A stretch of 64,000 bases of DNA from Syntrophorhabdaceae bacterium (GTDB taxonomy: Bacteria; Desulfobacterota; Syntrophorhabdia; Syntrophorhabdales; Syntrophorhabdaceae): assembly GCA_963665295.1 (NCBI GenBank), contig OY762209.1, forward strand, positions 800,001-864,000. Direction: 5' to 3'. Positions 1 through 19,821 of the stretch are shown here, piece by piece; the first letter of the stretch is position 1, and each line of letters starts with the position of its first letter. Under the pieces are notes generated by a model that worked only from the letters and a program-made list of their open reading frames with translations, had not been told where the DNA came from and searched no databases. The translations under genes and the position numbers were made by a program.

Positions 1-1368
1 AACCCCGATTTTGCCAACATCGTTTGTAGATTCACCGATCTTGAACGAAACACCTTCGCTCCGTCCGTTTTTCAGCACCAGCCGGAAACGACCTTCTGAT
101 TCATCTGTGAAGACATTTCCCACTGTTTTCAACCATTCCAAAAACGATGCAGCATTCAATTCTGGGCCGTACCATTCGACATTCAACCCTTCAGTTGCTT
201 CAGCGGGACGTGAAAGGTATTCCTTCAACGTCACACCGCTTTTTCGTGCCTGCCAGTTTGAACTTCCGAGGAATTCTCGTGCTTCCTCTTCGGAAACAAA
301 CTCTTTTGCGCTGGTTTCAATGATCGCGTCGCTGTATGGTTTGATCGCTTCCGGATAGACCGCGTCCACGAACCACGCATACTTTTCGGAAGATTCCGGG
401 CACATCACGCACCCGACTCGGGACAGACCGTACCGGTAAGCACGGTTGATCATCAAATCATTGTCAAGCAGATAGAGCCACAATTCATGTGCACCCCAAT
501 CTAGAATCGGCATCAGATTGGCTTGAGACGATGTCTTTACCCCTTCACCGATGTCTTCGTAAACGAATCGGCTCAAGCTCTCCTCCCTCCTAACGCCAAG
601 AAACGCCGCCGCTTTGACCGATGTCACTCCTAACTTGTGTTTAAGCTCGATCAGCGCGGGCGCGCTCTTGTGAACAGAGCAACACCATCGGACTGACCGC
701 GACGGCGGGCCGAAGAGCCGCCAGTTTTCCAATGCCGAGGTCTTTGCCGAAACCTTCAAAAACAAGCGACCATCGTAGCGGTTTTGGATTTCTTCCCAAA
801 TGCGGTAGGTATCGGGTAGTTCCATATCTGTGTCACTGAAAACAACCGGTACGTCCAACGGTAGGACTTTGTGACACAGGTCGAGCAGAACCACCGAGTC
901 CTTGCCTCCGCTGAAGCCGATATAAACCGTGTCGCATTTTTTCACGTAGGCGTCGTACATTTCCTTGATACGCTTGAGCGTGTCCACCACCAGCGCGGTC
1001 ATTATGTCACGGTTCTTTGCCACCATCGCATCAACATCTACGGGGTCCAGCCTCTTTCTTTTTCGTGACATCGCGCCTTCGACTGAGCCTTCATCTCCGC
1101 GTATCGTGTCCTTCCATTCGATGTCCAACGGCTTGCCGTAACGCGTTTTGTGAAGTCTCACGATTTCTTCGCCGTGATACAGGTATACGTTCTGCTTCGC
1201 CCAGAGGAGCGGACGCCTCTCCTCGGGATCGAATGCCAACTGCATCTCCAACCCTGTGAGCGCCAGTTCTTCGGCAAAGACCGGGCGGATTTCGCTCGCC
1301 ACGAACTTCCCTGTCTGCGTTATCAGGAGGTACCCACGCGTACGCTTGTCCCACTCGTAACTATACAT
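1..1368 (-). CDS. PAPS-reductase-family protein, BrxP-like (type IV BREX / DNA phosphorothioation); runs off the window at its 3' end
   Basis: Not in the ORF track because there is no stop in the window. Manual translation: MYSYEWDKRTRGYLL...IGFSGGKDS...RWCCSVHKSAP...LGVRREES...RVGCVMCP. Start overlaps the upstream stop (ATGTATAG). Confidence 0.85.
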   Translation of the reverse strand, partial: MYSYEWDKRTRGYLLITQTGKFVASEIRPVFAEELALTGLEMQLAFDPEERRPLLWAKQNVYLYHGEEIVRLHKTRYGKPLDIEWKDTIRGDEGSVEGAMSRKRKRLDPVDVDAMVAKNRDIMTALVVDTLKRIKEMYDAYVKKCDTVYIGFSGGKDSVVLLDLCHKVLPLDVPVVFSDTDMELPDTYRIWEEIQNRYDGRLFLKVSAKTSALENWRLFGPPSRSVRWCCSVHKSAPALIELKHKLGVTSVKAAAFLGVRREESLSRFVYEDIGEGVKTSSQANLMPILDWGAHELWLYLLDNDLMINRAYRYGLSRVGCVMCPESSEKYAWFVDAVYPEAIKPYSDAIIETSAKEFVSEEEAREFLGSSNWQARKSGVTLKEYLSRPAEATEGLNVEWYGPELNAASFLEWLKTVGNVFTDESEGRFRLVLKNGRSEGVSFKIGESTNDVGKIGV

Positions 1369-2827
1369 CCGCGCCCCTCCCCGGCACGATCCCGTTCTTT
1401 TCACAGATAGCAAAATAACGATGACGATTTCCAATGTATTGCCTCACGGTCGAAACCGCGAGACCACTCTCGCTTGCAATATTCTCGATGCCTTCTCCGC
1501 TTTCGACGCGTCTAGCCCACTCCGAGACACGCGGACTGGTGCCGGCGCTTCTGAGTAACCGCCAAGTCGACGACGATAACGGCCGCCCCTCTGCGCCGAT
1601 GATGCTGCCTTCCGCCTCCTGTACTGCAGCGGGTGGCGGCTTCTCCTCGGCCTGATATTCGTCCTGTTTATCGGCCCGCTCCAGCCGCAACCGCCTGTCC
1701 CACAGCGTTTCACCTTCGTAACTAAAACGGTAAAATCCATTTGCAGAAGAAATATTTAACAAGTGCATGGCCAATTTCGAAATCGCCCACGCCTCGCCGC
1801 CGTATTCCACTTGATTCGAATCATCTAGCACAGTGCAAGTGATACGGCGGTCCTTTGTGAGGACCAGTTCCGCGCCAACCGGCACACCAAGGTCACAGAA
1901 ACGCGTGTTCTGACTGCGCACACGTTTGCCCGGCGCGGACAAATCATTCGTTCTTACGCGACGTTTCCTCGTATTTGGAAAGACATCCTCCTCGCCTTGA
2001 TATTGTTTTGCACAGACGCGCATGAAGGCGCCGTTATCTGTCAGGGCGTAAACCTCGCGGAGACGTATACGATAGAACAAATTCAACGCGAATTCTAAAT
2101 TTGCGGCAGACACTTTCTCTTCCAACGCAACTAGCGTATCCACGGCGGTTGTCACTTTTTCCGAAAAATCCTCCGGCAGGTGGATCGCGTCCGTACTAAA
2201 CCAGCAGGGTACCCCGCCGACTTCCGCCGCATGGACTTCCGGCAGGAGTTGCATGCGGATGCCCTCTAGCGCCTCAGCGGTCAGGTGCGGCATCGCCGCT
2301 TCGATTTCATGGAAGGTCATCGTGCCATCCGCCTCTTCAAGCCATTCGGCGATCGTTTCCGAGATTGCCGCCAGACTATCATCCAGGCTAGGTGGGGGCT
2401 GTAAACAAAAACAACCCTCCTTTTGCCACTCCTCGACCGTGAAACCCAAATGCCTCAGAAGTATTGCACAATCCTCAGGCGTGGCAATATGGGGGAGGGT
2501 ACCGCAAAAGCTTCCAAACAGCCGTTTGACCGAAAAGCAACCGTGTTCCACTAGCCATTCGATGGCCTGCCCTTCGAGTGCCAACCGGGCCTCATCGTCC
2601 AAAATCATCTCACGGGAAAACCACAACCCGTTCGCCAGTTCGAACATCTCAGTTTTCAGGTCTTCGATCTGCGAATCCTCGAACGGAACTCTTTGCCGCA
2701 AGAGCCGCACCGCCATCGGATCGAACGACACACCGTTGGGGCATTCCCGCATCAATGCCGCCAAAAGCTCAGCAGTCGTCATGCCGCCCTCCATTCGTGG
2801 ATCAGCAAGCATGGCATCAGATCGCAT
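1361..2827 (-). CDS. Hypothetical protein with a C-terminal RAMA-like (modified-DNA reader) domain
   Basis: 488-aa ORF; segment FCDLGVPVGAELVL...VEYGGEAWAISKLA...NGFYRFSYEGETLWDRR resembles RAMA domains. Coupled to the PAPS-reductase gene. Confidence 0.6.
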   Translation of the reverse strand: MRSDAMLADPRMEGGMTTAELLAALMRECPNGVSFDPMAVRLLRQRVPFEDSQIEDLKTEMFELANGLWFSREMILDDEARLALEGQAIEWLVEHGCFSVKRLFGSFCGTLPHIATPEDCAILLRHLGFTVEEWQKEGCFCLQPPPSLDDSLAAISETIAEWLEEADGTMTFHEIEAAMPHLTAEALEGIRMQLLPEVHAAEVGGVPCWFSTDAIHLPEDFSEKVTTAVDTLVALEEKVSAANLEFALNLFYRIRLREVYALTDNGAFMRVCAKQYQGEEDVFPNTRKRRVRTNDLSAPGKRVRSQNTRFCDLGVPVGAELVLTKDRRITCTVLDDSNQVEYGGEAWAISKLAMHLLNISSANGFYRFSYEGETLWDRRLRLERADKQDEYQAEEKPPPAAVQEAEGSIIGAEGRPLSSSTWRLLRSAGTSPRVSEWARRVESGEGIENIASESGLAVSTVRQYIGNRHRYFAICEKNGIVPGRGADV

Positions 2828-3786: not shown

Positions 3787-4620
3787 ATGAATACTGATTC
3801 AAGATTGGTTTCCATGACACTCGACCAGGTGCGCGCCGCTGCACCTTCCGTATTTGCGGATCACCCGTGGGAAGGGGTTTCAGAGAGATATGCTTTTATC
3901 CCTACCTCGTCGGTGGTTGAATCCCTTACAGCCGAGGGATGGAATATCACAGCGGCAAAACAACAAAGGGTACTCTTGGAGGATAGAAAAGCCTTTACCC
4001 GCCATATGCTGCGGTTTCGCCGGGATGATGCCCTTACTCTGGCCGTAGGAGATGTCTTCCCCGAGATAGCCCTTACCAACTCCCATGACAGAGGTTCGGC
4101 TTACCGGATGGATGCCGGATTATTCCGTCTCGTATGCACCAACGGCCTTGTGGTGGACGACGCCACTTTCGCAAGACTTTCTATCAGACACGCAGGGAAC
4201 GTGCTTGATGATGTCCGAAAGGGAGCGGACGACATTGCAAAAGAACTTCCAAGGATCATGGGAGAGGTCCGCGACATGCAGACCATAGAGCTTAGCCCTG
4301 ACGAAAGAGGAGTATTCGCAAAAGCCGCCATGTCCCTTAAATTTGATGAGTCGATACCCGTTGAACCGTACCAGGTCCTTGCCGCAAGGCGATATGGTGA
4401 TCAAAACTCAGACTTGTGGACCACTTTCAACGTAATCCAGGAAAACGTAACGAAGGGCGGCTTAAGGTATGTACTCCCCGCCCACACCACCGAGGACGGC
4501 ACCCGCGTTCGAGCCAGAAGAGCAAGGACCCGAGAGGTCAAAAGTATCCGGGAAGACACGAAGCTCAACAAGGCCCTTTGGATGCTGGCCGAGGAGATGA
4601 AACGGTTGAAGGTGGTCTGA
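3787..4620 (+). CDS. DUF932 (YafZ/YfjQ/YubP-like) mobile-element protein
   Basis: APSVFA...SERYAFIPT, NSHDRGSAY, GLFRLVCTNGLV, DLWTTFNVIQEN, LNKALW motifs; AGGAGG RBS. Confidence 0.9.
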   Translation: MNTDSRLVSMTLDQVRAAAPSVFADHPWEGVSERYAFIPTSSVVESLTAEGWNITAAKQQRVLLEDRKAFTRHMLRFRRDDALTLAVGDVFPEIALTNSHDRGSAYRMDAGLFRLVCTNGLVVDDATFARLSIRHAGNVLDDVRKGADDIAKELPRIMGEVRDMQTIELSPDERGVFAKAAMSLKFDESIPVEPYQVLAARRYGDQNSDLWTTFNVIQENVTKGGLRYVLPAHTTEDGTRVRARRARTREVKSIREDTKLNKALWMLAEEMKRLKVV

Positions 4621-4959
4621 CTATAAGCCCACCCGTGGGCATTGTACGCGGGCCGGACCCTTACGGGTCCGTAGTCTAGGCCTAAGATCCGCGCACACAA
4701 TACCAAGCGAGACCTAGGAGGGAAAGCCGATCTGTCTGCGCCGAGGTTTCCAGAAGGGGGTTTTGGTGTGTCCGAACCGTGACACGGATGACTGAAAAAC
4801 ACTGGACTAAACGGGGAGAATGAAAATTAATGCTCCGATGACGAATCCGTCACAAAAATCAAAATAGTTAGGCTCTTTAGCTGCAGTAGCAAACTAATGG
4901 GCTTAGATCGTTGCAAAAGCGAAATACGGATTGAATTTTACCGTTTGTTACATTTTTGC

Positions 4960-4988
4960 TTGAACTAAAATATCGAATGTATGATAAT
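4960..4988 (+). promoter_or_regulatory. Putative sigma-70 promoter of the PRTase / HD-KaiC operon
   Basis: TTGAAC-17 nt-GATAAT in an AT-rich intergenic stretch. Confidence 0.4.
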
Positions 4989-5183
4989 CACCAATAGTAT
5001 AATAAGAGCTATTAGCGTGGGAAAAGGGCGGAAAGGTTCAAAGAGCTAACATACCCCCGACCTTTCCCATCCGTTACACCTGCCGAGACCAGGCCAAAAA
5101 AAAGGTTGAGCAGCAGAGGACCGGGCTGTTGTTGTGCTGATCAAATAGTCTACTGCTGAACGTGCTTGTTTCCGGGAGTTGGG

Positions 5184-5236
5184 GTCTGCTGATAGAGGAG
5201 TCGTTTTTCCTCTATCAGCAGACAGAATCCTTTTTT
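5184..5236 (+). terminator. Perfect 16-bp hairpin with downstream T-tract in the operon leader (terminator or attenuator)
   Basis: GTCTGCTGATAGAGGA-8 nt-TCCTCTATCAGCAGAC, then AGAATCCTTTTTT. Confidence 0.55.
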
Positions 5237-5420
5237 CCTTAAAGTCCGTTTCTAAGAGAAACCTGTTTGCTCACGTCGATCTTCTTTTTTGGGGTCTCGA
5301 GAGACGTGCCGTAACGGACAAAGAGAAAGGCGGATCGGGCAACCAGATGTTGCTTTGTTGGTTGGGGAGTTCTCTGCGGCAGATCGTCTATTCGGTGATC
5401 CGAAACAACGAGGATGCTCG

Positions 5421-6020
5421 ATGGAAACAGTACTGACGATAGTCTTTGGTATTATTGGTGGCGTTGGCGCAGCGCTCACCGTCTACTACGGCCGAAAATC
5501 AGCTCGTCTTGAGCGCGAGCGTGAGACGCTCTCTTGGAATGACGTGCAACTCGCCGCTGACGACCTCGCAGAGGACATCCGCAAAAGCCGGTTCCAACCG
5601 CAATTCATACTTGCTCTTAACACACGTGGCGGAATTATTGCCGAATTTGTCGCGCAGAATATGGCCGATTCTTTGCCCATAGTGGTGGGCATTACGGAGT
5701 GGAGAGATTTTGGCTATAATGCATATGATCTGAAGCAGTACGATTCGTTTGAAACAACCAAATGGCGCGTATCCATCCCTTTAACGGTCTATGACAATAC
5801 AGACAAGAACGTATTGATTGTAGATGATCTGGTCATGTCCGGAGATGCGATGGAGGAAGCCCGGAAAAGACTTGCGGAGAGGGGATTTACGAAAGATGCA
5901 ATCAGGACTGCCGCCATTGTAGTCACCGACGTGGCAATCAAAACCCATAAGGCGCCGGACTACCATTGGCGCCAGACTGATTCGTCGAGTTTCTATTTTC
6001 CATGGGGTAAAGCACGTTGA
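5421..6020 (+). CDS. Type I phosphoribosyltransferase-fold protein with an N-terminal transmembrane helix
   Basis: METVLTIVFGIIGGVGAALTVYY hydrophobic N-terminus; SWNDV, TRGGII, PRPP loop VLIVDDLVMSGDAM, C-terminal FPW (Gpt/Hpt-like). Start placed at ATG 5421 after GAGG. Confidence 0.85.
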   Translation: METVLTIVFGIIGGVGAALTVYYGRKSARLERERETLSWNDVQLAADDLAEDIRKSRFQPQFILALNTRGGIIAEFVAQNMADSLPIVVGITEWRDFGYNAYDLKQYDSFETTKWRVSIPLTVYDNTDKNVLIVDDLVMSGDAMEEARKRLAERGFTKDAIRTAAIVVTDVAIKTHKAPDYHWRQTDSSSFYFPWGKAR

Positions 6021-6139
6021 GGCTAAAGAGGTGTTTGATCCAAGTAGATACGGTGAACCCTCTGATAAATCCTGCCCGGAAAAGACTTGCTCCGCTGCAG
6101 TCATGTCGTGGACTCAAATAATTGAGAGGGAGGGGTTGA

Positions 6140-9100
6140 ATGGACTCAGATGAAGTGAACTTCGAGATGAACGATGATAGGCACAGGGCTGTTTGGGACC
6201 AATTTTGTAACGGCGATCCAGGCCAAATAGATTTCAAGAACTATCAGAGTGTCCTTGAGACTCTCCTTGAAGACACCGATGCCGATCTGTACCCACAGTA
6301 TCGTAAGATCAAGGAGTTGATGCATGATGCGTACGAAAACGAGGATTTGCGCCTCCACTTTATCGACAAGAAGGATCATTCTCACGAAAATCGTATCCTC
6401 AATTATCTGGACAGATTCCTGTTTGAAGCCGGCCCCGTCGATGAAGCAGGAAAGTCCTTCCCCGTAGTAAAGCTTACGCCGGAACGCATCTTTGTGCTCC
6501 TCTGCGCAGTACAACTCCACGATTATGGCAAAACCCGCTGGCAGCTAACGATCTACTCCTTGATTAAGGACGTTGCGGATTGCATGAAGGATAATGATAA
6601 CAAATTATTCGTCAAGTACAACGAAAATGGTCAGATTCTTTTGACTATAAAGGCCAGGGCCAAGGATTTGCACGACGAAACCGAACAGTCTGACCTAAAG
6701 AATCTGGCGAAGCAGTTATCGGATCTCCACAGCTTGATGGATGCGGTCGATATAAATGACCTGGACATAGATGCTTTTGGACGCATAGAGGACTACCATT
6801 CGCACAACATACGCCATTTCTTGGACGCGATCATTGAGGCCAAAGACCCGAAGAAGCTGAAAAAGGGCTTCAAGGGAAAAGATTTTGTCCTTAGACATAT
6901 TATTCCAGGTGGCACTGATGAGGATAAGGCAGAAGCGAAGCTGGTCGACCACTTGGGCTCCTTAGACAATAAGCATCTGGAAAGGATCAAGTCCATAGCG
7001 AGTGCCCATAAACCCTTCAAGCGTCGTGAAGGCAAGGATGGGGTGGAAGACTGGTACTATAATCAAGCGGAAGACGAAGACAGATGGCTTTGCGCTTTGC
7101 TGCGCCTTTGCGACTCCCTCGACATGGACAGACGGAGAGTGATCGAGAAGAAAAAGAGAGATCTCACCTATCTGCTCGATGAATACTATAAACAGAAAAC
7201 GCCTAATGGAGAGGTGGTGGACGATAACAGGTTGCGCGTTTTTGCTATCTGGACCAGGTTTCTGTTGGTAAAGGAAATAGGCATTCTCCATTCGAACGAA
7301 GACAAGAAGAAACACCGTATTGACATATTGCTAACCTACTATCAATTCCCGAACGCAGACAAGTATTTCTTCCCCCTCCGTCACATGGTCGAAAAGGATT
7401 TCATGAATAAGAAATTCCTGCTCGACATACTGGATGATGGCCAGGGAAAGACAGGGGGTCTGAGAATAAACCTAATGTACCGTATTCTCATGGAAGAAAA
7501 CCCGGACTATCCGGCCATCAATATAGATGACAGAATGGGTAAAATATTCGAGAAGGCTGCGAACAAACATCCGACCCCGGATATCCGCGAGAATGGTGAG
7601 CCCGACAACCCGGTGAGAAAACACTTTACCCCGATCTCGGAAGACGATCTAAGGTTCGTAGCCTTTGAGCGTGACGCCATTGAGCTGATCGGTGAACCTG
7701 ACGAAGACAAGAAGTATCTTTATCTTCCCAACTCTCTCAACCTCTATTCTTTTCTTAACCATTTCAAGGACGGCGATAGGATATCGCCCGAACCGCTGTC
7801 GAGACACCTCTTTTCCAATTCCAAGGTAAATCCACTCAGTCATAACTATCTAAGAGACAATATAATTCGCCAGGCTGGCAATCTTCAGGAATACGTATTT
7901 GATGGACGCGTGCTGGAGATCATGGGTCCTCTTTTCCGCGTCGCGTATCGTCATCCTATTCTCCTTAAGAGCAAGATTGATGAAATAGAGAAGTTTCAGC
8001 ACATTATGCCATTCTCTAGAATGGATGGACCGAAACGTATTTCCAGCGGGATACCCGGCCTTCAGGAAGTGATCTCAGATTCGGAAGCTGGGGGAGGGAT
8101 AGTGCATTCAAGAAACATCCTGATTAAGGGCGGACCAGGAACGGGCAAAACGACAATAGCACTCCAGATCTTTCAGGAGAACTTGAAAGATAACTACCCA
8201 AGGTTCGCCGGGAGGCAGGTCCTTTATATAACCTTTGAAGAAAATCCGACGAGGATTGAGACGGAGTGCCGCAAGTGCTTTGGATGGTCAATCGAAAAAC
8301 ACCGGATATTGCAGCTCAGGATGAAGGAAGGCAACTTCCAGATGAGCGCTTCACAAGATTTACATTCAGAAGAAAACGCCAGGTTGGCTGCCAAGATTTT
8401 CATGAACATCGTGGATGACTACCATGCGGAAGTATTGTTTGTCGACAGCCTGAACCAGCTCTGCTCATTCTTGAGGAGTAAGGAGATTGATGGCAAGAAG
8501 GCGATAAAGTACATATTTGATGAGATGGAAATGCAGCACATAACTGCCTTCTATCTCCTTGAAGACGAAGAAGAAAACAGTTTTGAAGAGTACGCCGCGG
8601 ACGGGATCATCTATCTTGAAAACAAGAGGGGCAAAAGAACACTGGAAATACGTAAGTTGAGGATGCAGAAGTTCGTCCCAGGCAAGCACAGCTTCAGAAT
8701 AATGGATACCGCCGCACTAAAGGGTAAGCAGGAGATCGAAAGTAAGTGGCTGCAGCCGGGGGTCAATCTTTTTCCCAACGTAGAAACCTATGCCGAGCGG
8801 ACGTACGCCGAAATACCTCACGATTCAAGCCAGCGGATAGTCAAGACCGGCATCGAGGGGCTCGATGGACTGCTCCCCATTTCACCTGAGAGACCAAAGG
8901 AGGGGGGCTATCTCAGGGGCAGCGTTGTTCTCGTCATAGGAAGCCCCGGCAGTGGCAAAACAATATTCGGACTACAATTCGCCAAGCAGGGGATAATGGA
9001 GAAGAAGGAAGAGGGGAAATGCCTTTGGATCAGCTTTGAGGGCGGAAGAGCTGAGCTCCAGTTTGCTGTCGGGAGATTTCACCCGGGCCTCAGATTTAAC

Positions 9101-11746
9101 GAGATATTCAGCGATGAGGAGAAGTTTCTGTTTCGCTATTTCCCGCCGGCCCACTGCGACCCCGATGAACTGATCTATCTGATCCACAGGATTGTAAAGC
9201 CGGTGGATCATAAAGTCAGCAGAATTGTAATAGACAGTGTTTCTGAACTGGAAGAGTTGTTTGACGATAAGAATAGTTTCAAGAACTATATGGCCACCTT
9301 GATTCATGAATTGAAGCAACTAAATGTGACTACCATCTTTCTTTACCGTTCACCCGAGTTTTTCGGGTTTCAAAGGCGCACTAGCACGGTGATCTCCTCT
9401 CTTGTTGATACCATCATATCCATTAAGACCTTCGATATAAAAAACAGGATCAAGAAGGGGCTCTTCGTGTTGAAATCACGTGGCCGAGAACAGAAAAGCA
9501 ATCTCCAGACTATGGAGATTCTTTATGACAAGGGGATTGTGGTCTCGGATAGGGGCTGGGAACTGGAAGGACTCCTTGGAGGAGAGACAGGCGAAATTAA
9601 GGAACCCTATATCTTTCTCAAGCTTTTTTATGAGAATGCAGCAGAAACGAAGATTAACGACTATCTCATTAAGGATTTCAGGGAACGCTACCCCATGAGA
9701 AGCAACAGGCTCTTTGCAACTGTCAGAAAACCCCATATCTATCATGAGTTCTGGAGTTTCAAAGGGAATTACGGGGCGGGACACGCCAATATTCGCATCG
9801 TTTCACTTAACAAATATATGGTTGAAGCCTTTCGGGAAAACGACCGCCTCCACATTCTTGACGGATACTTTTCCAGCTCCCTTAAGGAAGAGATTGAGTC
9901 TGACATAAGATACAACAAGTACTACAACAAGGATAGAAGATTTGATTTTCTGCCCAGCTACAGTGATTTCGGTGTGCTCGTCTTCCAAAAGCATCTGGCA
10001 GAGAAAGCTCAGCCCGAGACCAAAGTAAAGGTCGAAGACAGCAGTTGGGGAGAAATCATCAAAACTCTCACGCCTCTGTGTGAAAGATTGAACACACAAC
10101 CGGACGGGAAGAACGTTTTCTACACTTTTGCCATGCCGCCCCTCGACAACATGACTGAGTTTGTGGCCTTCTTCATGGAGGTTCTCTGGAGCCACGGCGG
10201 TGATCTTTACTGGTTTCCTCCCTTTTCCGAGAGATTGCACGAACCTTCAAGTAACAGGCTTTCCTTCTATAAGCGCATGATTCTCAGGAATAAGCCATTG
10301 CGAAAAGAAGTGGAGTCTTTGATCAAAAACCTTGACCCTAAGGTGCCTGCAAACAAGATTACAATAGATGCAGTGGAGAAGACCCTTAGCGATTTTGCCA
10401 AAGACAGGTACGATATTCCTAACATGATAAGAATCAACGACCAAGAGGCAAAAGGAGCGATGGAGTTCATGTGTGATCTTGTCATCAATGGTCACTGTCC
10501 CAGTCCGGCCCAAGGCGATTTTAGACCCTATGCCCTCATATCGAGAAAGTGGTACAGCGAAGTGACAGAATTTCAGAGACACGTCTCATCGATCAAGTGT
10601 GGCCAAGAGGAGCGCTACAAGCTCTTCAGGGACGGGGTCAAGAAGGAAAGCCCCAAAGACACTAAAGGTGCCGACAACAACCCACCAGCTCTGGAACTCC
10701 ATAAGTTACCTTATTGCAGAGAGACCTTGAAAAGTGTTACGAACCAGGGCATATGGTGTCTGGGCATAATCAAAGAGGCACTTTCCCCCGAAATAGGATG
10801 GATATTCATAGATACCATGGTATCGCCCGAAATACGAAGGATGCGAGCAGTGGAGAAACTCGGCTTCCCTATCAAAATAGAAGACATTCGCTCCGACACA
10901 TACTCATGGGCGGACAAGGATGTCTATGACAAGGTGGCTTCCATCATGGAAACCGATACTGTTCTCGATCAAAAGACGGATAATCTGGCGGTACTCTTTT
11001 ATCTGGACTATGATCGGAAGGACCTGAGTGAGAGGGATCCGTTTGATGAAGCAGTGGAATACCTTGGGAAAGCGAACTGCGACGAGCACCAGATAGGGGA
11101 TATTATCCGTCAACTGCTAGAGGCGTTTCACAAGATTACGGAAAACAAGGTTCTTGCCGACTTAAAGAAGAGACTGGAAACAGGTGGCCGGGAGCAGAGA
11201 ACAATTGATGTGACCGAGGAGGACTTTCTCCTTCAAGATCCTGACGCGGCCAGAATTGAAGGCAAAGTGGATGGGTATCTCATAAAACAGTTCGTACGCC
11301 TCTATCGTGAGAGCGAAACAGACGATTCCAGGGGTACGAGGGCGAACCTGGAGACAATTATCAGAGAAAAGTCAGAAGTGGATATCAACAACTTCATTGA
11401 ACAGGAAAAAAAGAAACTATCTGACAAGATAATCCGTCTCTTCAAGTTTTTTTATAGTGCAACGGATGGCCATTTAGGCCCGATAAGCTCGGCAGAGCAG
11501 GTCGAAAGCTTCATTCGCGAAAACAAATGCACTTTCAACTACGGAAAAGTCGAAAAGCAGCCGATATACTGCTCGAAGCTGGCGGCGAACCGGCCCTATT
11601 TCTATCGTTTTGAACCGATCATTCATAAACACGTCAAGAGACTGTTCCCGGATACGGGAAGCCCCAAGAAGGAACTGATCAACGAGGTGCTCGACTCCAT
11701 GAGACAAGAGATGATTCTGGAAGTATTCAGCAATCCCGGACTGTGA
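6140..11746 (+). CDS. 1868-aa fusion: HD-CE-like phosphohydrolase, two KaiC/RecA-like ATPase domains, and a cytoplasmic sugar-ABC-type solute-binding domain
   Basis: HD motifs (DHSHENRIL, QLHDYGK, ALLRLCDSLD); Walker A GGPGTGKT and GSPGSGKT; YITFEE, VIDSV, ISSLVDTII, LKSRG. MalE/UgpB-like motifs (LPSYSDFGVLVFQKHL, SWGEI, VLWSHGGDL, AMEFMCDLV, GIWCLGI, GWIFIDTMVSPE). Confidence 0.85.
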   Translation: MDSDEVNFEMNDDRHRAVWDQFCNGDPGQIDFKNYQSVLETLLEDTDADLYPQYRKIKELMHDAYENEDLRLHFIDKKDHSHENRILNYLDRFLFEAGPVDEAGKSFPVVKLTPERIFVLLCAVQLHDYGKTRWQLTIYSLIKDVADCMKDNDNKLFVKYNENGQILLTIKARAKDLHDETEQSDLKNLAKQLSDLHSLMDAVDINDLDIDAFGRIEDYHSHNIRHFLDAIIEAKDPKKLKKGFKGKDFVLRHIIPGGTDEDKAEAKLVDHLGSLDNKHLERIKSIASAHKPFKRREGKDGVEDWYYNQAEDEDRWLCALLRLCDSLDMDRRRVIEKKKRDLTYLLDEYYKQKTPNGEVVDDNRLRVFAIWTRFLLVKEIGILHSNEDKKKHRIDILLTYYQFPNADKYFFPLRHMVEKDFMNKKFLLDILDDGQGKTGGLRINLMYRILMEENPDYPAINIDDRMGKIFEKAANKHPTPDIRENGEPDNPVRKHFTPISEDDLRFVAFERDAIELIGEPDEDKKYLYLPNSLNLYSFLNHFKDGDRISPEPLSRHLFSNSKVNPLSHNYLRDNIIRQAGNLQEYVFDGRVLEIMGPLFRVAYRHPILLKSKIDEIEKFQHIMPFSRMDGPKRISSGIPGLQEVISDSEAGGGIVHSRNILIKGGPGTGKTTIALQIFQENLKDNYPRFAGRQVLYITFEENPTRIETECRKCFGWSIEKHRILQLRMKEGNFQMSASQDLHSEENARLAAKIFMNIVDDYHAEVLFVDSLNQLCSFLRSKEIDGKKAIKYIFDEMEMQHITAFYLLEDEEENSFEEYAADGIIYLENKRGKRTLEIRKLRMQKFVPGKHSFRIMDTAALKGKQEIESKWLQPGVNLFPNVETYAERTYAEIPHDSSQRIVKTGIEGLDGLLPISPERPKEGGYLRGSVVLVIGSPGSGKTIFGLQFAKQGIMEKKEEGKCLWISFEGGRAELQFAVGRFHPGLRFNEIFSDEEKFLFRYFPPAHCDPDELIYLIHRIVKPVDHKVSRIVIDSVSELEELFDDKNSFKNYMATLIHELKQLNVTTIFLYRSPEFFGFQRRTSTVISSLVDTIISIKTFDIKNRIKKGLFVLKSRGREQKSNLQTMEILYDKGIVVSDRGWELEGLLGGETGEIKEPYIFLKLFYENAAETKINDYLIKDFRERYPMRSNRLFATVRKPHIYHEFWSFKGNYGAGHANIRIVSLNKYMVEAFRENDRLHILDGYFSSSLKEEIESDIRYNKYYNKDRRFDFLPSYSDFGVLVFQKHLAEKAQPETKVKVEDSSWGEIIKTLTPLCERLNTQPDGKNVFYTFAMPPLDNMTEFVAFFMEVLWSHGGDLYWFPPFSERLHEPSSNRLSFYKRMILRNKPLRKEVESLIKNLDPKVPANKITIDAVEKTLSDFAKDRYDIPNMIRINDQEAKGAMEFMCDLVINGHCPSPAQGDFRPYALISRKWYSEVTEFQRHVSSIKCGQEERYKLFRDGVKKESPKDTKGADNNPPALELHKLPYCRETLKSVTNQGIWCLGIIKEALSPEIGWIFIDTMVSPEIRRMRAVEKLGFPIKIEDIRSDTYSWADKDVYDKVASIMETDTVLDQKTDNLAVLFYLDYDRKDLSERDPFDEAVEYLGKANCDEHQIGDIIRQLLEAFHKITENKVLADLKKRLETGGREQRTIDVTEEDFLLQDPDAARIEGKVDGYLIKQFVRLYRESETDDSRGTRANLETIIREKSEVDINNFIEQEKKKLSDKIIRLFKFFYSATDGHLGPISSAEQVESFIRENKCTFNYGKVEKQPIYCSKLAANRPYFYRFEPIIHKHVKRLFPDTGSPKKELINEVLDSMRQEMILEVFSNPGL

Positions 11747-12460: not shown

Positions 12461-12488
12461 GGGGGTTCGAATCCCCCTGGGAATCCCA
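12461..12488 (+). other. Degenerate tRNA 3'-end-like fragment (possible secondary att site)
   Basis: GGGGGTTCGAATCCCCCTGGGAATCCCA: T-arm plus CCA, no rest of a tRNA. Confidence 0.45.
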
Positions 12489-12995: not shown

Positions 12996-13021
12996 GGGTT
13001 CGATTCCCGCCGCCTCCACCA
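12996..13021 (+). other. attR: displaced 3' end of tmRNA (or of a tRNA)
   Basis: GGGTTCGATTCCCGCCGCCTCCACCA, preceded by integrase-site-like ATATCAATAACTTA and ATTTCAAATACTTA boxes. Confidence 0.75.
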
Positions 13022-13048
13022 TTTTGGAATCCGATACGCAGCACATGG

Positions 13049-13078
13049 AACCCGCTGGAAACAGCGGGTTTTTTATTT
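13049..13078 (+). terminator. Rho-independent terminator (native terminator of the target RNA gene)
   Basis: AACCCGCTG-GAAA-CAGCGGGTT-TTTTATTT. Confidence 0.85.
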
Positions 13079-14272: not shown

Positions 14273-15439
14273 ATGCGTCGAGGATCGTCTGGTGATTATG
14301 TTACTGTCTCTACGGTCGGGGATGAGCGGGTAAGCGCGTTTGTGCCTCATCCGCTGCCGCCGGTTCCGCCGTTGGCGATCGACGACAACCTTCGTGACCT
14401 CATTGACCGGTCGCTTCTTGCCCTTGGCCGCCTCGATGGAGTTACCGCGCTGCTTCCCGATACCCGGCTCTTTCTTTATATGTACGTCCGTAAGGAAGCC
14501 GTATTGTCATCTCAAATAGAAGGCACCCAGTCTTCTCTTTCCGATCTTTTGCTCTTCGAGATCAAGCAAGCCCCCGGTGTTCCGCTTGGCGATGTGGTGG
14601 AGGTATCGAACTATGTCGCCGCCCTTGAACATGGCCTTTCTCGCTGTAGGGACGGCTTTCCCCTATCGAATCGACTGATAAAGGAAATACATGGAGTTCT
14701 GCTGCGAGAAGGGCGAGGCAGTGACAAATCGCCGGGAGAATTTCGCCGGTCCCAGAATTGGATAGGAGGCACGAGGCCTGGAAACGCCTTCTTTGTGCCA
14801 CCGCCACCCGACAGAATAGCCGATACAATGGGCGCTCTGGAATTGTTCCTTCATGATCAGCCCGTGAAGACTCCTGTCCTCATAAGAGCGGCACTCGCAC
14901 ATGCTCAGTTCGAGACCATCCACCCATTCCTTGACGGGAACGGAAGAGTCGGGAGACTTCTCGTGCCCCTTCTGCTGTGCATCGAAGGTATACTGAAGGA
15001 GCCGCTCCTCTATCTCAGCCTTTATTTCAAGGCCCATAGAGCCCAATACTATGATCTTCTTAACGGCATTCGCACTGAAGGGGATTGGGAGGCGTGGGTC
15101 TCGTTCTTTTTGGAGGGCGTGCGCCAGATGGCGGAAAGCGCCGTAATAGCGGCCCGTCGTCTGGCGGACATGATTGCGCGCGATCGTGAACGCATTCAGC
15201 GTCTGGGGCGCATTGCAGGTTCTTCCTTGCAGGTGCATCAGGCTCTCCAGGCAAGGCCCATCGCCACCATTGCGTCTCTTTCCTCCGAGACGGGTCTCTC
15301 AATGCCCACGGTAACCAAAGCCGTTCAGGCGCTTGAAGACGGAGGATTCGTAACGGAAATAACAGGCCGACGGAGGGGAAAGATTTACAATTACGGGGAA
15401 TACATGGATATCATGAATGAGGGGGCCAACCCGGAATAG
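14273..15439 (+). CDS. Fic-family protein with Fic_N domain and C-terminal winged HTH
   Basis: EAVLSSQIEGTQ, GEFRRSQNWIG, HPFLDGNGRVGR. Confidence 0.95.
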   Translation: MRRGSSGDYVTVSTVGDERVSAFVPHPLPPVPPLAIDDNLRDLIDRSLLALGRLDGVTALLPDTRLFLYMYVRKEAVLSSQIEGTQSSLSDLLLFEIKQAPGVPLGDVVEVSNYVAALEHGLSRCRDGFPLSNRLIKEIHGVLLREGRGSDKSPGEFRRSQNWIGGTRPGNAFFVPPPPDRIADTMGALELFLHDQPVKTPVLIRAALAHAQFETIHPFLDGNGRVGRLLVPLLLCIEGILKEPLLYLSLYFKAHRAQYYDLLNGIRTEGDWEAWVSFFLEGVRQMAESAVIAARRLADMIARDRERIQRLGRIAGSSLQVHQALQARPIATIASLSSETGLSMPTVTKAVQALEDGGFVTEITGRRRGKIYNYGEYMDIMNEGANPE

Positions 15440-15522: not shown

Positions 15523-15864
15523 GCGCCATGGTCCGGCCGGTGCCCTTCGACGTATGGGAATATACGCCTGCGGTCCTCCTATGCTCCCCTGACACCACAT
15601 CCGGACCTTCCGGCCAATTCCACCCTCCACAGCAGGCGGCTCAAAGAGCTCATTTTGGTCAATTGGGGCAGGGGTTTGTTGTTGGGAAAGATATTTCTTG
15701 CAAAGTAATTGCAAATAATTGGAAAATAAGGGAGGAGGGGCATAGCTAATCTCCCCCAAAATGAGGTTCTGAATTTCTATAAAAGTGGCCGATAGAGGAT
15801 GTTATACAGAACTATTTTCTGTATATTTACTTGTTTGAAGTGAATTTATATCTTGGAGAAAGCT

Positions 15865-18387
15865 ATGAGCACAATCGTCCAGAACGTCAATGTTCATGTC
15901 AGTCATTCCGACATTCAATTCCTTAAATGGCTTCACATATCGGACTTACATTTCGGTCAGGGCAGATACGCCCATAGTCGCGTTGATCAGGAAATGGTCG
16001 TCGAAGAACTTCTTCACGACGCCACCCAAGTGAGAAAACTAATCGGTTCACCCGACTTCGTCTTCCTCACCGGAGACGTAGCGTTCAGCGCGGACCCCGC
16101 CGAGTATGCCGTAGCAGCGGCATGGACTGATCGACTACTTGAGCAGTTGGGCGTGGACCAGGAGAATTTGTACATCGTCCCAGGCAATCACGATGTAGAT
16201 CGCCGAAGAGCCTTGGATGGACCGACGCATAGGTTCATCCACACCGGGCTAAGACAGACTCCTGAGACGATTGATGACTATCTTGCTAGGCCAACTGAGT
16301 TGGAACAACTCTGGACAAAACTCAAGGCTTTCTCTGACTTCGCGAGGCCATATGGGCCAGTCCAGGTGTCTTACGACTTCCCGTTCTGGACGCACGCAGT
16401 TGATACACTAATGGGCCCCGTCGAGATCGTGGGTCTCAATACAGTCCTATTGAGCTTTGACGATGCAGACCGCGGTTCTCTGACTGTCGGTAAACACCAA
16501 CTCAAGGTCCTGCAAGACCGACAGCGGTTTCGCATAGTGCTTCAGCATCATCCACCTCAATGGCTGCGCGATGGCGACGAACTGAACAAAATACTAAGTA
16601 CTCGCCCACATGTTCTCCTGTGTGGCCACATTCACGAACAACAGGTCCAGGCTATTACCCCTATGGCACAAACCGGACTTCTGCGGTTCGTGGGAGGATC
16701 CGGTCATGAAGACGCAGCACGCCCTCTGCATGCGTACAACTGGGGGCGCGTATCCTCGGAAGGAATCGATTGGTTCCCCAGGCTGTGGAACCACAAGACC
16801 CGTTCGTTTGGGCCGGACTATTCGAATCCAAGCGTTGGTCGTGATCAGTACATCAGGTATACTCGTGAAGATATCCGGGCCTACTCACCTGCGACATTTG
16901 CGTGGCTTCCGGGACGGGATTCCTTTGTCCTGACGCATGTCGAGAGTTGGATAGCGGACAGCCGTGGGCAGTGGCATTTGACGACCGAGAAACCTGTGAA
17001 GGTGACGAAGGATTCTCTACCAGGAATCCTCGACGGACTCCGTGCTGCCGCAGAGGATGCGAACGTCAGCTACGTTGGGTCTGGCGACGACAATAGTTTA
17101 ATCTTCTCTGGTTCGGAGGATGGGTACGATACGCTAAGGCGGTCTCTTGAGTCCGACAGGCAGGCGCTATGCGAGACGCTGGGATTCGAGATCACCCGGA
17201 TTGACAGGGTACAGGGCGCAACTGTGCGGGCATCGGTTTCACAGGATCCTGGAGAGAGTCCACCAAGCCACTCTAAACCGTGGATATCCACGAGCGAGGA
17301 GTTCGTTCCTCCTTTGATTCGCGGATGCAGCATTAATCCGTCTCTGTCGACGGTATCTTTTATTATCGACACGGGAGATAAGGGGAAGCAAATCGACAAG
17401 GAGGAGTTCCAAACTCTGGTAAGTTACTTTTTCTCCTCCTTGTCGTTTCCAGAGGACGACTTTTGGGTTAATCTGTCGGCATATGAGAGCAGAAGAATGA
17501 TCCCACAGGCACTAGGGAGGACCAAGCTTGGTCGAGACATGCTAGCCCAAGACTGCGTTCTGAAGAAGCTGTGCGCCTCGCTTCTGCATCCATCTACCCC
17601 TACAGGTCAGCGGTACTGGGCAGAATTCCATTCGAGGGTGTGCACTTCAGATGGTGCCGCGAGTTGCTTCCAGAAGGTATGGATGCAACCAAAAGTCGCC
17701 ACAGTCTACGAAAAGCCGGCGGGAAAGGAAGAGCCTCAGTTAGAGGGGAACCTCAAAGTTCCCAAAGACCACAGCTTGGCGTATGTGTGTGAAGCCGAAA
17801 TCGGTATTTTCTGTGAGGAGGATGTCATTGCTGCTCACGCGGAATCCGCAAGTGGTGAGCCAGCTTTAGAATCTCGCCGCGCTCACGCCGCTCTCTTTCG
17901 GGATCTCATCGTGCCGGTCATCCATCGGGAAGTGAACAACGGCAGGAACTTCAGTGCAATGCGTCAGATATATAACGCAATGATCCTGGCGACGTGGTTC
18001 CGACTCAGCCATGGAAAGAGCCAGCACTCGCCTTCTTTCATTGGGAGCCGCGATAGTTCACTCGTCTTTGCGACGACAGGCGACCACTCTTTTGTCAGAG
18101 GGGAAAGCAGTATTATCTCTGATGGTTCCATGCAGATAGCCACATCTAACGACGGCATAGACCTCAACGAGTTGTACTACCAAGAGTACCTTCAGCTCTT
18201 CAGGGAAGGGCTTCGACAGACCGAACAGATCGTAGACGTAACCACCGGCCAAGTGACCAGAAGAACATATATGTCCGGCAGATCGGACTTGACGGAAATC
18301 GCGATTCGCTCAACATCATTTCCTTTCGGGCTTCGTTCTTTGCCGCTTCACTGCATAACGGTTCAGGTGAGGGAAGGGGACGGGTAA
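15865..18387 (+). CDS. Calcineurin-like metallophosphoesterase fused to an uncharacterised C-terminal domain
   Basis: SDLHFG, TGDVA, PGNHDV, QHHP, CGHIH motifs. C-terminal FWVNLSAYE...LGRDMLAQD...EVNNGRNF...RQIYNAMILATW...RTYMSG. Start at ATG after GGAGA. Confidence 0.85.
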   Translation: MSTIVQNVNVHVSHSDIQFLKWLHISDLHFGQGRYAHSRVDQEMVVEELLHDATQVRKLIGSPDFVFLTGDVAFSADPAEYAVAAAWTDRLLEQLGVDQENLYIVPGNHDVDRRRALDGPTHRFIHTGLRQTPETIDDYLARPTELEQLWTKLKAFSDFARPYGPVQVSYDFPFWTHAVDTLMGPVEIVGLNTVLLSFDDADRGSLTVGKHQLKVLQDRQRFRIVLQHHPPQWLRDGDELNKILSTRPHVLLCGHIHEQQVQAITPMAQTGLLRFVGGSGHEDAARPLHAYNWGRVSSEGIDWFPRLWNHKTRSFGPDYSNPSVGRDQYIRYTREDIRAYSPATFAWLPGRDSFVLTHVESWIADSRGQWHLTTEKPVKVTKDSLPGILDGLRAAAEDANVSYVGSGDDNSLIFSGSEDGYDTLRRSLESDRQALCETLGFEITRIDRVQGATVRASVSQDPGESPPSHSKPWISTSEEFVPPLIRGCSINPSLSTVSFIIDTGDKGKQIDKEEFQTLVSYFFSSLSFPEDDFWVNLSAYESRRMIPQALGRTKLGRDMLAQDCVLKKLCASLLHPSTPTGQRYWAEFHSRVCTSDGAASCFQKVWMQPKVATVYEKPAGKEEPQLEGNLKVPKDHSLAYVCEAEIGIFCEEDVIAAHAESASGEPALESRRAHAALFRDLIVPVIHREVNNGRNFSAMRQIYNAMILATWFRLSHGKSQHSPSFIGSRDSSLVFATTGDHSFVRGESSIISDGSMQIATSNDGIDLNELYYQEYLQLFREGLRQTEQIVDVTTGQVTRRTYMSGRSDLTEIAIRSTSFPFGLRSLPLHCITVQVREGDG

Positions 18388-18613: not shown

Positions 18614-18732
18614 AAGGCATAGGGGTCAGCCCTTGACACGAGACAGATAGCTAACAACCACTTGAAAAACACAATGATTCAGGTCCTTTTACAGTAGATA
18701 TGTCCCGTGTCAAGGGCTGACCCCTATGCCTT
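18614..18732. repeat. MITE/REP-like element with long terminal inverted repeats
   Basis: AAGGCATAGGGGTCAGCCCTTGACACG...CGTGTCAAGGGCTGACCCCTATGCCTT (27-bp perfect arms). Confidence 0.85.
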
Positions 18733-19398
18733 TTCTCGTGATAGATCCTGCCTCCAGCATGACGGTGAGGCCGAGGATATCTCCTATGCCGGGCAGGGTG
18801 AGGAGGCCTTTGAATTCATCCCTGAGTTTCGCCTCTGCAAGGATCACCCCTTCGATGCGGTCTATCTCTTTGGTGAGTTCACGCATGATCGTAACGCTTG
18901 CGTTGACGGAGAGAAACAGATGTTCCTCCGGGAAGAGCTTTCTTACCTCAACCTCATCAAACTTCTTTACCACATCTCCCCTCACGATAATTCCCAAACT
19001 CCGGCTTATGATGTTCTTGATGCTCAGGATATGGGAAGATCGATGACGCACCAGATGCAACCGTTTTCTCAGGAGATCCCGGATGGGCCTCTCTTCCCTG
19101 GGATAAATATACCCTGTAGGCAATATCCCCAACCGTAAGAGATTGGCAAGCCAGAGGGCGCTTCTCTTATCGTCTATGTTCTTGAGTCCCTCATATTGTT
19201 TGATGGCTGCGGGATTGGCGAGACGCACCGTATATCCATTCTCCATGAGCCCATCCACGAACCAGTACCAGTTGAAGGTAGACTCCACCGCGATCGCGGA
19301 CACCTCTTTCCTGAACGGGTCCAATGTGCCAAGAACGGTCGGGAGATCATTATTCAGCTTCTTCTGAAAGATGACCTTATTTGCCTCGTCAACGATAC
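18733..19398 (-). pseudogene. IS110-family transposase fragment, truncated at both ends
   Basis: AVESTFNWYWFVDGL, LANPAAIKQYEGLK, DDKRSALWLA, LPGIGDI. Cut by IS630 at CTAG (5') and by the MITE (3'). Confidence 0.9.
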
Positions 19399-19803
19399 CT
19401 AGTGTAGTGTCTCAGTAACGCCTTTACAGCGATTCACTTTTTCAAGTATCTCCTCGGCCTTCCTGGTCCATACGAAGGGTTTGGGGTCTTCGTTGTTGCA
19501 GCGAATATATTCTTCGATGGCGGTCACCAGTTCCTGAACGCTTTTGAAGATGCCGCGACGAATTCTCTTTCGTGTGATCTCCCCGAACCAGCGCTCCACC
19601 AGGTTAAGCCACGACGAGCTTGTGGGTGTAAAGTGGGGAACGAAACGGGGGTGTTTTTCGAGCCATGCTTTCACATTGGGGTGGGTATGAGTTCCGTAGT
19701 TGTCGAGAATCATATGGACATCGAGGCCCTTTGGCACCTGACGGTCTATGGTACGCAGGAACTTAAGAAATTCGGTATTTCTGTGGCGGGGATAGCAGGA
19801 GCC
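19399..19803 (-). mobile_element. IS630 3' fragment matching the end of the intact copy at 27757
   Basis: Same sequence as 27757-28161; begins CTAGTGTAGTGTCTCAGTAA; interrupted by IS66 at CAGGAGCC. Confidence 0.95.
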
Positions 19804-19821
19804 GTAACAGTTTAGTCCCCC

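Follow-up and report, generated by a model that had tools for sequence, protein, structure and literature searches.

The locus described here lies in a 64,000-nucleotide stretch of DNA from a Syntrophorhabdaceae bacterium (GenBank assembly GCA_963665295.1, contig OY762209.1, positions 800,001 to 864,000; hereafter the window, with positions counted from its first letter). It comprises two genes on the same strand, the first encoding a type I phosphoribosyltransferase (PRTase) with a transmembrane anchor and the second a protein of 1868 residues, which is the main subject of this study (Table 1). The locus is cargo at the attR end of an integrative and conjugative element (ICE) of ~63.5 kb that is integrated in ssrA. 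An earlier reading of the letters by a model (the original prediction) had joined the two genes into one system and had described the larger gene as a fusion of an HD domain, a double KaiC and a cytoplasmic MalE-like domain. This fusion is borne out by domain matches and fold comparisons.

Domain architecture of the 1868-residue protein

The large gene is a single uninterrupted open reading frame (ORF) of 1868 codons, and its ATG is preceded by a GGAGG resembling a ribosome-binding site. Four parts can be distinguished in the protein: an HD domain, a linker, two KaiC domains and a MalE-type solute-binding fold. Relatives are annotated in their source records as ‘ATPase domain-containing protein’ or ‘KaiC’, and Pfam matches to nSTAND and NACHT models are confined to the P-loop.

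The N-terminal region has an HD-superfamily fold with H...HD...D metal ligands. The Pfam model HD-CE (PF24391, gathering cut-off 27 bits) matches residues 79-334 with 23.9 bits in hmmscan; a six-frame search of the genome gives 26.4 bits, or 28.7 bits with neighbouring stretches, and the cut-off is exceeded in 9 of the 31 homologues scanned (28.8-46.1 bits). In an alignment of 27 sequences H82, H127-D128, H220, H290-K291 and D325 are invariant, and thus the H/HD/D residues (H82, H127-D128, D325) are kept as the original prediction had claimed. An AlphaFold model of residues 1-632 (pLDDT 81.4, pTM 0.87) gave no Foldseek match at E<=0.001. The top matches in VIA-align are nearly all HD-superfamily enzymes, namely the PPX/GppA C-terminal domain (Z 8.9), YhaM (8.6), PDE9A (8.5) and Rel hydrolase (8.0), with HD-GYP (6.7) and SAMHD1 (6.0) lower; by VIA-align's own caveat a Z of 8-8.9 is middling, and we assign the HD fold because the list of matches is consistent and the metal ligands are invariant. 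The nearest Atlas clusters of this domain are HD-CE proteins, which are short and stand alone (276-519 residues), while here the domain is fused to the KaiC and solute-binding parts. Nicastro et al. are said to have predicted in 2023 that the HD-CE family degrades nucleotides. The linker gave a single weak local match, to the winged-helix-like Csx1-family protein SSO1393 (VIA-align Z 6.1, 61 residues), and is possibly a winged-helix-like module itself.

The double KaiC core is matched by Pfam KaiC (PF06745) in two stretches (E 1.3e-62). Its Walker A loops, GGPGTGKT from residue 664 (nucleotides 8129-8152) and GSPGSGKT from residue 934 (8939-8962), lie exactly where they had been placed from the sequence, and column counts show both to be conserved among homologues. 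The EE pair announced for domain 1 is E700-E701, kept in 13-14 of 15 homologues. Domain 2 has an invariant E967 (n=15 homologues) followed by G968, which is G in 12 of the 15. The ISSLVD stretch, for which a KaiC-like phosphosite region had been predicted, does align with KaiC chains: I-S1086-S1087-L-V-D falls on I-S-T-I-T-D of KaiC CII, a stretch that presumably holds the S431/T432 autophosphorylation sites. S1086-S1087 correspond to nucleotides 9395-9400; of 15 homologues, 12 have S or T at position 1086 and 14 have it at position 1087.

The likeness to circadian KaiC (PDB 1tf7, 1u9i, 7dy1) thus covers the tandem RecA-like domains with a Walker A each, the EE of domain 1 and the hydroxyls at S431/T432, and the family profile matches KaiC chains over both domains with E 1e-69 to 1e-85. 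The differences are equally clear. The NCBIfam clock-KaiC models (NF006799 / TIGR02655) score 172.7 bits against a cut-off of 408 and 92.7 against 546.25, domain 2 has E-G, and the protein has ~630 extra N-terminal and ~710 extra C-terminal residues. By these scores it appears to be a member of the KaiC/RecA-like superfamily and not a clock KaiC equivalog. Neither kaiB nor kaiA was found among the neighbours of the gene in the window (kaiA was not searched genome-wide), in agreement with the original prediction; the genome does hold a kaiC-kaiB-kaiB locus (C1:1290035-1292351; L002, L067, L068) ~480 kb from the island, where two kaiB genes (1291753-1292351; 96.5 and 85.5 bits) stand beside a separate kaiC-like ORF of 572 residues.

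The C-terminal 708 residues are matched by no Pfam model of their own, SBP_bac_1 and SBP_bac_8 included (E<=0.1). In the equivalent region of the homologues P0014 (E 1.2e-6) and P0016 (E 1.1e-13) SBP_bac_8 / SBP_bac_1 are matched, and the family profile finds the trehalose/maltose-binding protein 1eu8 (E 1.5e-13) and MalE3 6dtq (E 6.4e-11) in the PDB. The AlphaFold model of the domain (pLDDT 87.2, pTM 0.90) matches 1eu8 in Foldseek (E 7.4e-12). In VIA-align it is superposed on 6j9w with Z 27.5 and a root mean square deviation of 2.9 A over 376 of 403 residues, and on 1eu8 with Z 27.4 over 381 of 407 residues; superpositions on alpha-glycoside-, trehalose/maltose- and sulfoquinovosyl-binding proteins range over Z 27.1-27.5 and 2.8-3.0 A, with 362-381 residues aligned across model positions 1-706 at 13-19% identity. 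The AlphaFold models of the two terminal parts have HD-superfamily and MalE-type folds, respectively.

The whole two-lobe fold of MalE and the trehalose/maltose-binding proteins (1eu8, 6j9w, 6dtq) is present, and yet the domain differs from importer proteins in its ~330 residues of chiefly helical insertions, its missing signal peptide or lipobox and its fusion to a cytoplasmic ATPase. It should be cytoplasmic because it is internal to this fusion, beginning at residue 1159. No ABC permease or ABC ATPase genes were found among the neighbours of the 1868-residue gene. The C-terminal domain has a solute-binding fold and is not a transport solute-binding protein; the MalE/UgpB-like domain lacking a signal peptide had been foreseen correctly, and the Foldseek comparison suggested at the time agrees. 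The KaiC alignment ends at residue 1149, equivalent to KaiC residue 493, and the first strand of the binding fold follows from residue 1159. We take the region around KaiC residue 493 to be the A-loop and C-terminal tail, where KaiA controls KaiC.

Table 1. Features of the locus and its surroundings in the window.
Feature	Position	Strand	Basis
HD-CE / linker / KaiC x2 / solute-binding-fold protein gene (P0001)	6140..11746	+	ORF, translation, domain matches
HD-superfamily phosphohydrolase domain, HD-CE type (residues ~43-460)	6266..7519	+	Pfam, invariant columns, structural matches
Linker, alpha/beta elements (residues ~496-620)	7625..7999	+	model secondary structure
KaiC-type RecA-like domain 1 (CI-like)	8033..8719	+	NCBIfam PRK09302 residues 632-1154; GvpD P-loop match 658-842
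KaiC-type domain 2 (CII-like)	8840..9589	+	Pfam KaiC 901-1137; residue alignment to KaiC chains
MalE-type solute-binding fold, complete, two-lobe (residues 1159-1868)	9614..11743	+	profile, model, Foldseek, VIA-align
Type I PRTase, N-terminal transmembrane helix anchor, 199 residues	5421..6020	+	Pfam, motif, family alignment
brxP 5' part, first gene of BREX type-4-like operon running leftward out of the window	1..1434	-	Pfam PAPS_reduct; PADLOC BrxP
attR, exact copy of ssrA 3' end (last 25-26 nucleotides)	12996/12997..13021 (genome 812996-813021)	+	0 matches in 100 shuffles
Strong terminator-like hairpin + T run, just after attR	13047..13072	+	11-pair stem, 6 GC pairs

Distribution of the family and the neighbouring PRTase gene

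The search for homologues of the same architecture, also proposed earlier, did uncover a family. A word-indexed search with the whole protein over 5.8 billion proteins gave 16 matches including the query, of which 8 cover nearly the full length and share 31-52% identity. When the C-terminal 708 residues were searched exhaustively with phmmer against 1.84 billion representatives, 65 proteins were recovered (55 at E<=1e-10, 35 at E<=1e-30), and in nearly all full-length proteins with the C-terminal domain it directly follows two KaiC domains. Pfam (E<=1e-5, n=31 homologues) matches KaiC in 28, HD-CE in the 9 above cut-off and solute-binding models in 2, and our own hidden Markov models find the HD domain in 27 of 71 family proteins. 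The HD domain is missing from about 19 KaiC-KaiC-solute-binding fusions of some 900-1650 residues, a few of them maybe shortened by contig ends; for this reason we regard the KaiC pair with the solute-binding domain as the core of the family and the HD domain as an added effector. On one metagenome contig (L018:759-6478) the HD-KaiC-KaiC part (1121 residues) and the solute-binding part (771 residues) are adjacent ORFs, split at the KaiC/solute-binding border, which could reflect either a frameshift or a natural organisation in two subunits.

Named hosts are metagenome-assembled genomes of Thermoanaerobaculia, Aminicenantes and Poribacteria. Among genome contigs a single-protein search found 0 loci and an alignment search 3, and a search with P0010 returned only the same contig again. 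The C-terminal domain was found in 0 of 60 genomes of the same genus, family and order, and viral contigs gave one weak KaiC-only match for the large protein and none for the PRTase. The architecture is that of a conserved, rare family with a patchy distribution across unrelated phyla.

The PRTase itself is as first described, a transmembrane helix followed by a PRTase domain with an intact DD loop for phosphoribosyl pyrophosphate (PRPP): a hydrophobic N-terminal helix is followed by RKSAR, Pribosyltran (PF00156) matches with E 2.4e-10, and the PRPP loop VLIVDDLVMSGD (VLIVDD) is intact. The only other Pfam match at E<=0.1 is a weak one to UPRTase, and the best named match in NCBIfam is xanthine PRTase, with 25.5 bits against a cut-off of 138. 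The PRTase-CE Pfam models gave no match at E<=0.1; we assume that our Pfam copy contains them because PMC13712802 uses these names for Pfam families. The PADLOC model PRTase_III-A reached only E 2.7e-4, over the PRPP loop.

The family of this PRTase comprises 20 proteins, all with the transmembrane helix, a DDxxMSGD loop and a C-terminal FYFPWGKAR motif, and relatives occur in 35 genome loci from Pseudomonadota, Acidobacteriota, Bacillota, Bacteroidota, Actinomycetota, Chloroflexota and archaea. An adjacent co-oriented phosphatase gene is present in 19 of the 35 loci (13 IMPase-family, 4 HAD_2, 2 Cof-type). Examples within L027-L061 are L034:9001-10438, L050:9001-10418 and L054:1268-2650, and in L044 and L046 the two ORFs overlap or are maybe fused. 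PRTase and phosphatase may form an undescribed two-step module leading from base to riboside-5'-phosphate to riboside, for which we found no name. In a FastTree phylogeny the PRTase of the window groups with P0073-P0078 and L027-L029, and the three loci visible in this clade show varied neighbours with neither a phosphatase nor an HD gene among them; in L027 the PRTase gene lies between inositol-1-phosphate synthase and a Dcm-Vsr-MvaI restriction system.

Possible function

We read the 1868-residue protein as a stand-alone sensor-NTPase-effector, in which the binding domain would gate a hexamer of the KaiC type and, through it, an HD effector directed at nucleotides. Its purpose would probably be defence, and we give this reading about an even chance. 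A defence setting is suggested because BREX, PDC-S02 and PDC-S57-like genes lie on the island side and SoFic and PDC-S60-like genes past attR. Going by the homology to KaiC, the RecA-like pair would be stacked as a double hexameric ring, with six binding domains hanging from ring 2, where KaiA acts on KaiC, and six HD-CE domains with their linkers from ring 1. A ligand would close the binding domain and alter ATP turnover in ring 2, perhaps with autophosphorylation of S1086/S1087; control of ring 2 by a ligand is proposed because the binding domain is fused ~10 residues past the equivalent of KaiC residue 493. The change would pass from ring 2 to ring 1, where the HD-CE domains would be released or assembled and thereby switched on. 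Hydrolysis of nucleotides by the HD domains would then bring about a collapse of the nucleotide pool or of a signal nucleotide. That the ligand might be a glycoside- or nucleoside-like metabolite is only a guess from the structural matches. A bolder version is tentative and rather doubtful: the autophosphorylating double ring would be the switch, possibly the timer, of an immune protein whose cytoplasmic MalE fold senses a small molecule derived from infection and whose six HD-CE domains destroy the nucleotide pool. The sensor-switch-effector logic of the original prediction remains the most economical reading, while the part it gave to the PRTase is unsupported.

In our rating the protein follows the layout of effector, NTPase and sensor that is known from conflict systems, with KaiC as its core and a binding-protein fold as its sensor. 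STAND/Avs proteins have the same logic: a single gene in defence islands encodes an enzymatic effector at the N-terminus, an oligomerising NTPase in the centre and a sensor at the C-terminus. In contrast to them, the protein described here has a double RecA/KaiC module in place of the STAND nucleotide-binding oligomerisation domain and a Venus-flytrap small-molecule fold in place of a TPR or other protein-recognition domain. A second parallel is PUA-Calcineurin-CE-HAD, where ‘CE’ stands for conflict effector and where, according to a preprint (bioRxiv 10.64898/2026.01.15.699771), a ligand-sensing hexamer with a CE phosphoesterase was shown experimentally to deplete dNTPs. Both combine a small-molecule sensor fused to a conflict-effector phosphoesterase with a hexameric assembly and a collapse of the nucleotide pool, assembly and output being proposals in our case. 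The PUA-Calcineurin-CE-HAD system differs in having a PUA-like sensor, a calcineurin-like effector, no NTPase ring and a separate HAD partner that it needs; the likeness is one of logic, and no sequence relationship to the 1868-residue protein is expected.

Several observations weigh against the proposed immune sensor. The hmmscan score of the protein for HD-CE is below the Pfam cut-off, and domain 2 has E-G where KaiC CII has E-E. The best PADLOC matches, mad8 (E 1.7e-9, residues 657-728) and GajB (E 1.3e-7, residues 656-680), cover the Walker A only. The best fold matches of the C-terminal domain are sugar-binding proteins, which a metabolic sensor would fit equally well. In addition, 5 of 9 homologous loci with flanks (L011, L012, L013, L022, L023) have no defence-type neighbour, and at some loci the neighbours are ordinary genes (chorismate synthase, MscS, an MFS transporter, an enolase-like gene), with the proviso that the neighbourhoods leave out the closest relatives P0003-P0007 (43-52% identity). 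A PADLOC-type neighbour, which favours a defence role, is found at the other 4 of the 9, a raw count with no background rate from which no enrichment is implied. At these loci HsdR lies directly upstream of the homologue (L025), a divergent UvrD/GajB-like helicase of 1172 residues lies upstream (L016), or DrmD and MzaA fragments lie within <=8 kb (L014, L021), L014 also having transposases on both sides.

The two-gene system of the original prediction, in which the membrane PRTase would make or consume a ribonucleotide that is sensed by the binding domain or dephosphorylated by the HD domain, is quite improbable in the light of our data. The two genes are co-oriented and separated by 119 nucleotides with no terminator-like site between them in a hairpin scan; a hairpin with a T-rich stretch, read by eye and unlisted by that scan, precedes the PRTase gene at ~5187-5245. 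Both genes come from rare families, and with a phosphatase partner in so many PRTase loci an HD phosphohydrolase could in principle take its place. The conserved linkage that such a system calls for was, however, found in neither direction. Fifteen loci were compared, 13 of them with true relatives of the large protein and two (L019, L020) with plain KaiC. A tblastn search with the PRTase gave nothing better than E 1.2 in the 15 loci, and so the PRTase is absent from 13 of 13 (E<1), just as the large protein is absent from all 35 PRTase loci; the test cannot see anything closer than about 50% identity, since the loci compared do not include the nearest relatives of the two genes (P0003-P0007 for the large protein; P0074-P0077, 52-68% identical, for the PRTase). 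At least 750 nucleotides of upstream sequence are available for 8 of the 13 loci, and no Pribosyltran domain is found among their upstream ORFs (7 loci scanned with Pfam; in L023 a 169-residue ORF was only listed). The ORFs of the 7 scanned loci encode MscS/chorismate synthase, an MFS transporter, a transposase, a UvrD-type helicase, HsdR, a uridine-kinase-family fragment and a low-complexity protein of 169 residues. The uridine-kinase-family fragment, in L018, is from another salvage enzyme and would suit a two-gene system; the 169-residue ORF, upstream in L021 and L023, is of low complexity and unrelated to the PRTase (hhalign probability 0.25%), and we treat it as non-genic. The varied neighbours of the window's own PRTase clade and the missing PRTase-CE match also speak against the pairing. 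The idea that the HD domain substitutes for the usual phosphatase of the PRTase family was set aside, the clade of the window PRTase having no phosphatase or HD neighbours elsewhere. A predicted complex of the HD/linker part (1-632) with the PRTase (28-199) scored 0.00 (mark 0.32) and is not evidence either way. The PRTase is probably an independent, unrelated cargo gene.

Two other explanations keep the large protein as a single unit and give it a different purpose. It is unlikely, in our view, that it serves signalling outside defence, as a KaiC-like hub that senses a cytoplasmic sugar or compatible solute, tunes an HD phosphohydrolase acting on a signal nucleotide (e.g. in stress or dormancy) and is mere cargo of the ICE. 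Such a role would agree with the trehalose-, maltose- and sulfoquinovose-binding proteins among the best folds, with an HD superfamily that includes hydrolases of (p)ppGpp, c-di-GMP and c-di-AMP among the structural matches, with the several homologues amid housekeeping genes and with the proposal, known to us through its citation in PMC13700489 (Makarova et al. 2017), that KaiC-like ATPases are signal-transduction hubs in archaea. It is at odds with a family that is very rare, patchy across unrelated phyla and absent from 60 of 60 relatives, with an N-terminal domain that matches the conflict-effector HD branch and not the HD-GYP or RelA/SpoT models (9 homologues being above the HD-CE cut-off), and with the position of the window copy between BREX and attR on the ICE. 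It is very improbable that the protein serves the element itself, whether through addiction or stabilisation, by excluding rival elements or by countering host defences. The 1868-residue gene does lie at the extreme attR end near DUF932 and other cargo, and solo PRTases and other nucleotide-acting domains have been reported in conjugative elements (PMC5512222). Against this, homologues occur at loci that show no trace of a conjugative element over 6-8 kb, and viral contigs hold no relatives save the one weak KaiC-only match; nor can such a role be told apart here from host defence, defence genes being frequent cargo of mobile elements.

No system with this architecture was known to the original prediction, and none was found in curated models or searchable literature. 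Pfam, NCBIfam and PADLOC hold no name for it, and PADLOC-DB v2.0.0 has no full-length system-component match for the 1868-residue protein or the PRTase, so that the PADLOC check proposed at the outset yields no system model for the former beyond P-loop similarity. Searchable literature contains no description of the architecture and no pairing of KaiC with HD-CE, the paper defining HD-CE (NAR 51:11479) and a survey of KaiC fusions (mBio 8:e01959-17) being outside that scope; neither KaiC nor PRTase is mentioned by Kaur et al. 2020 (PMC7159879), and the 2026 ParA preprint is silent on KaiC. Should the immune-sensor reading hold, the effector-NTPase-sensor plan of STAND/Avs would have been rebuilt independently on a KaiC scaffold, a new NTPase class in prokaryotic immunity, and KaiC-like proteins would gain a role outside clocks and archaeal signalling. 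On the bolder version, no immune sensor based on KaiC would have preceded it, nor any intracellular immune receptor with the fold of a transport-type binding protein. The question of which metabolite signals infection would become tractable as well, since a domain of this kind lends itself to direct ligand screening, and a conserved slow ATPase with a phosphosite would raise the idea of a timed, hourglass-like immune response. If metabolic signalling were its function instead, the coupling of sugar sensing to an HD hydrolase would still be undescribed.

The integrative element and its other genes

The tmRNA island of the original prediction is real, with ssrA itself (genome 749179-749532) lying outside the window, 51 kb before its start; ARAGORN and Rfam find no tmRNA, tRNA or Rfam match within the window, and what it holds is the repeat of the ssrA 3' end that we call attR. 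The hairpin just after attR is likely the native ssrA terminator, displaced by the insertion. A tyrosine integrase gene (749535-750752) lies directly beside ssrA. Between the repeats are found genes of a type IV secretion system (VirB4/TrbE, TrbC pilin, TrbL, VirB8, CagX, TrbI and a VirB11-like ATPase), a TrwC relaxase, a TrwB coupling protein and several insertion sequence (IS) copies, and it is because the ssrA repeats enclose integrase, secretion system, relaxase and coupling protein that the locus is taken as ICE cargo. The G+C content is 0.45-0.49 across the PRTase and 1868-residue genes versus 0.51-0.55 in the flanks.

The BREX operon, which we take to be type-4-like, is complete (genome C1:791187-801434) and lies on the ICE, ~4.7 kb from the PRTase and the large gene. 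PADLOC recognises BrxP (E 5.8e-247), BrxC/PglY (E 0), PglZ (E 0) and BrxL (E 1.3e-227). Beside the operon is a gene for a PDC-S02 (YhcG-type) PDDEXK nuclease (genome 789646-790779). Two further genes separate BREX from the PRTase gene: an ORF of 488 residues (window 1361-2827, -), the C-terminal half of which is PDC-S57-like (E 4e-18), and DUF932 (3787-4620, +; E 3.7e-42), after which ~800 nucleotides are non-coding. No Rfam match was found in 4500-6200, and the 180 nucleotides after DUF932 (4621-4800) fold no better than shuffled sequence (z -0.45).

The IS copies on the ICE include two of IS3 type (rve + HTH_Tnp_1; C1:755436-756829 and 782799-784192) with identical domain scores, and three of IS630 type (DDE_3 + HTH_32; 758377-759508, 767789-768920 and 779905-781036), two with identical and the third with near-identical scores. 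One IS copy interrupts the row of secretion-system genes.

Just past attR a SoFic-type Fic/helix-turn-helix protein is encoded (window 14273-15439, +; PADLOC E 1.3e-117), followed by a PDC-S60-like calcineurin-type phosphoesterase of 844 residues (15853-18387, +) and, beyond it, by IS110, DDE_3 and IS66 transposase genes or fragments (18710-21342, -). Perhaps this stretch is an older island, the second one inserted here. A tRNA T-arm-like stretch, GGGGGTTCGAATCCCCC (12463-12480), lies after the 1868-residue gene and before attR; ARAGORN recognises no tRNA in it, and it may be what is left of another attachment site.

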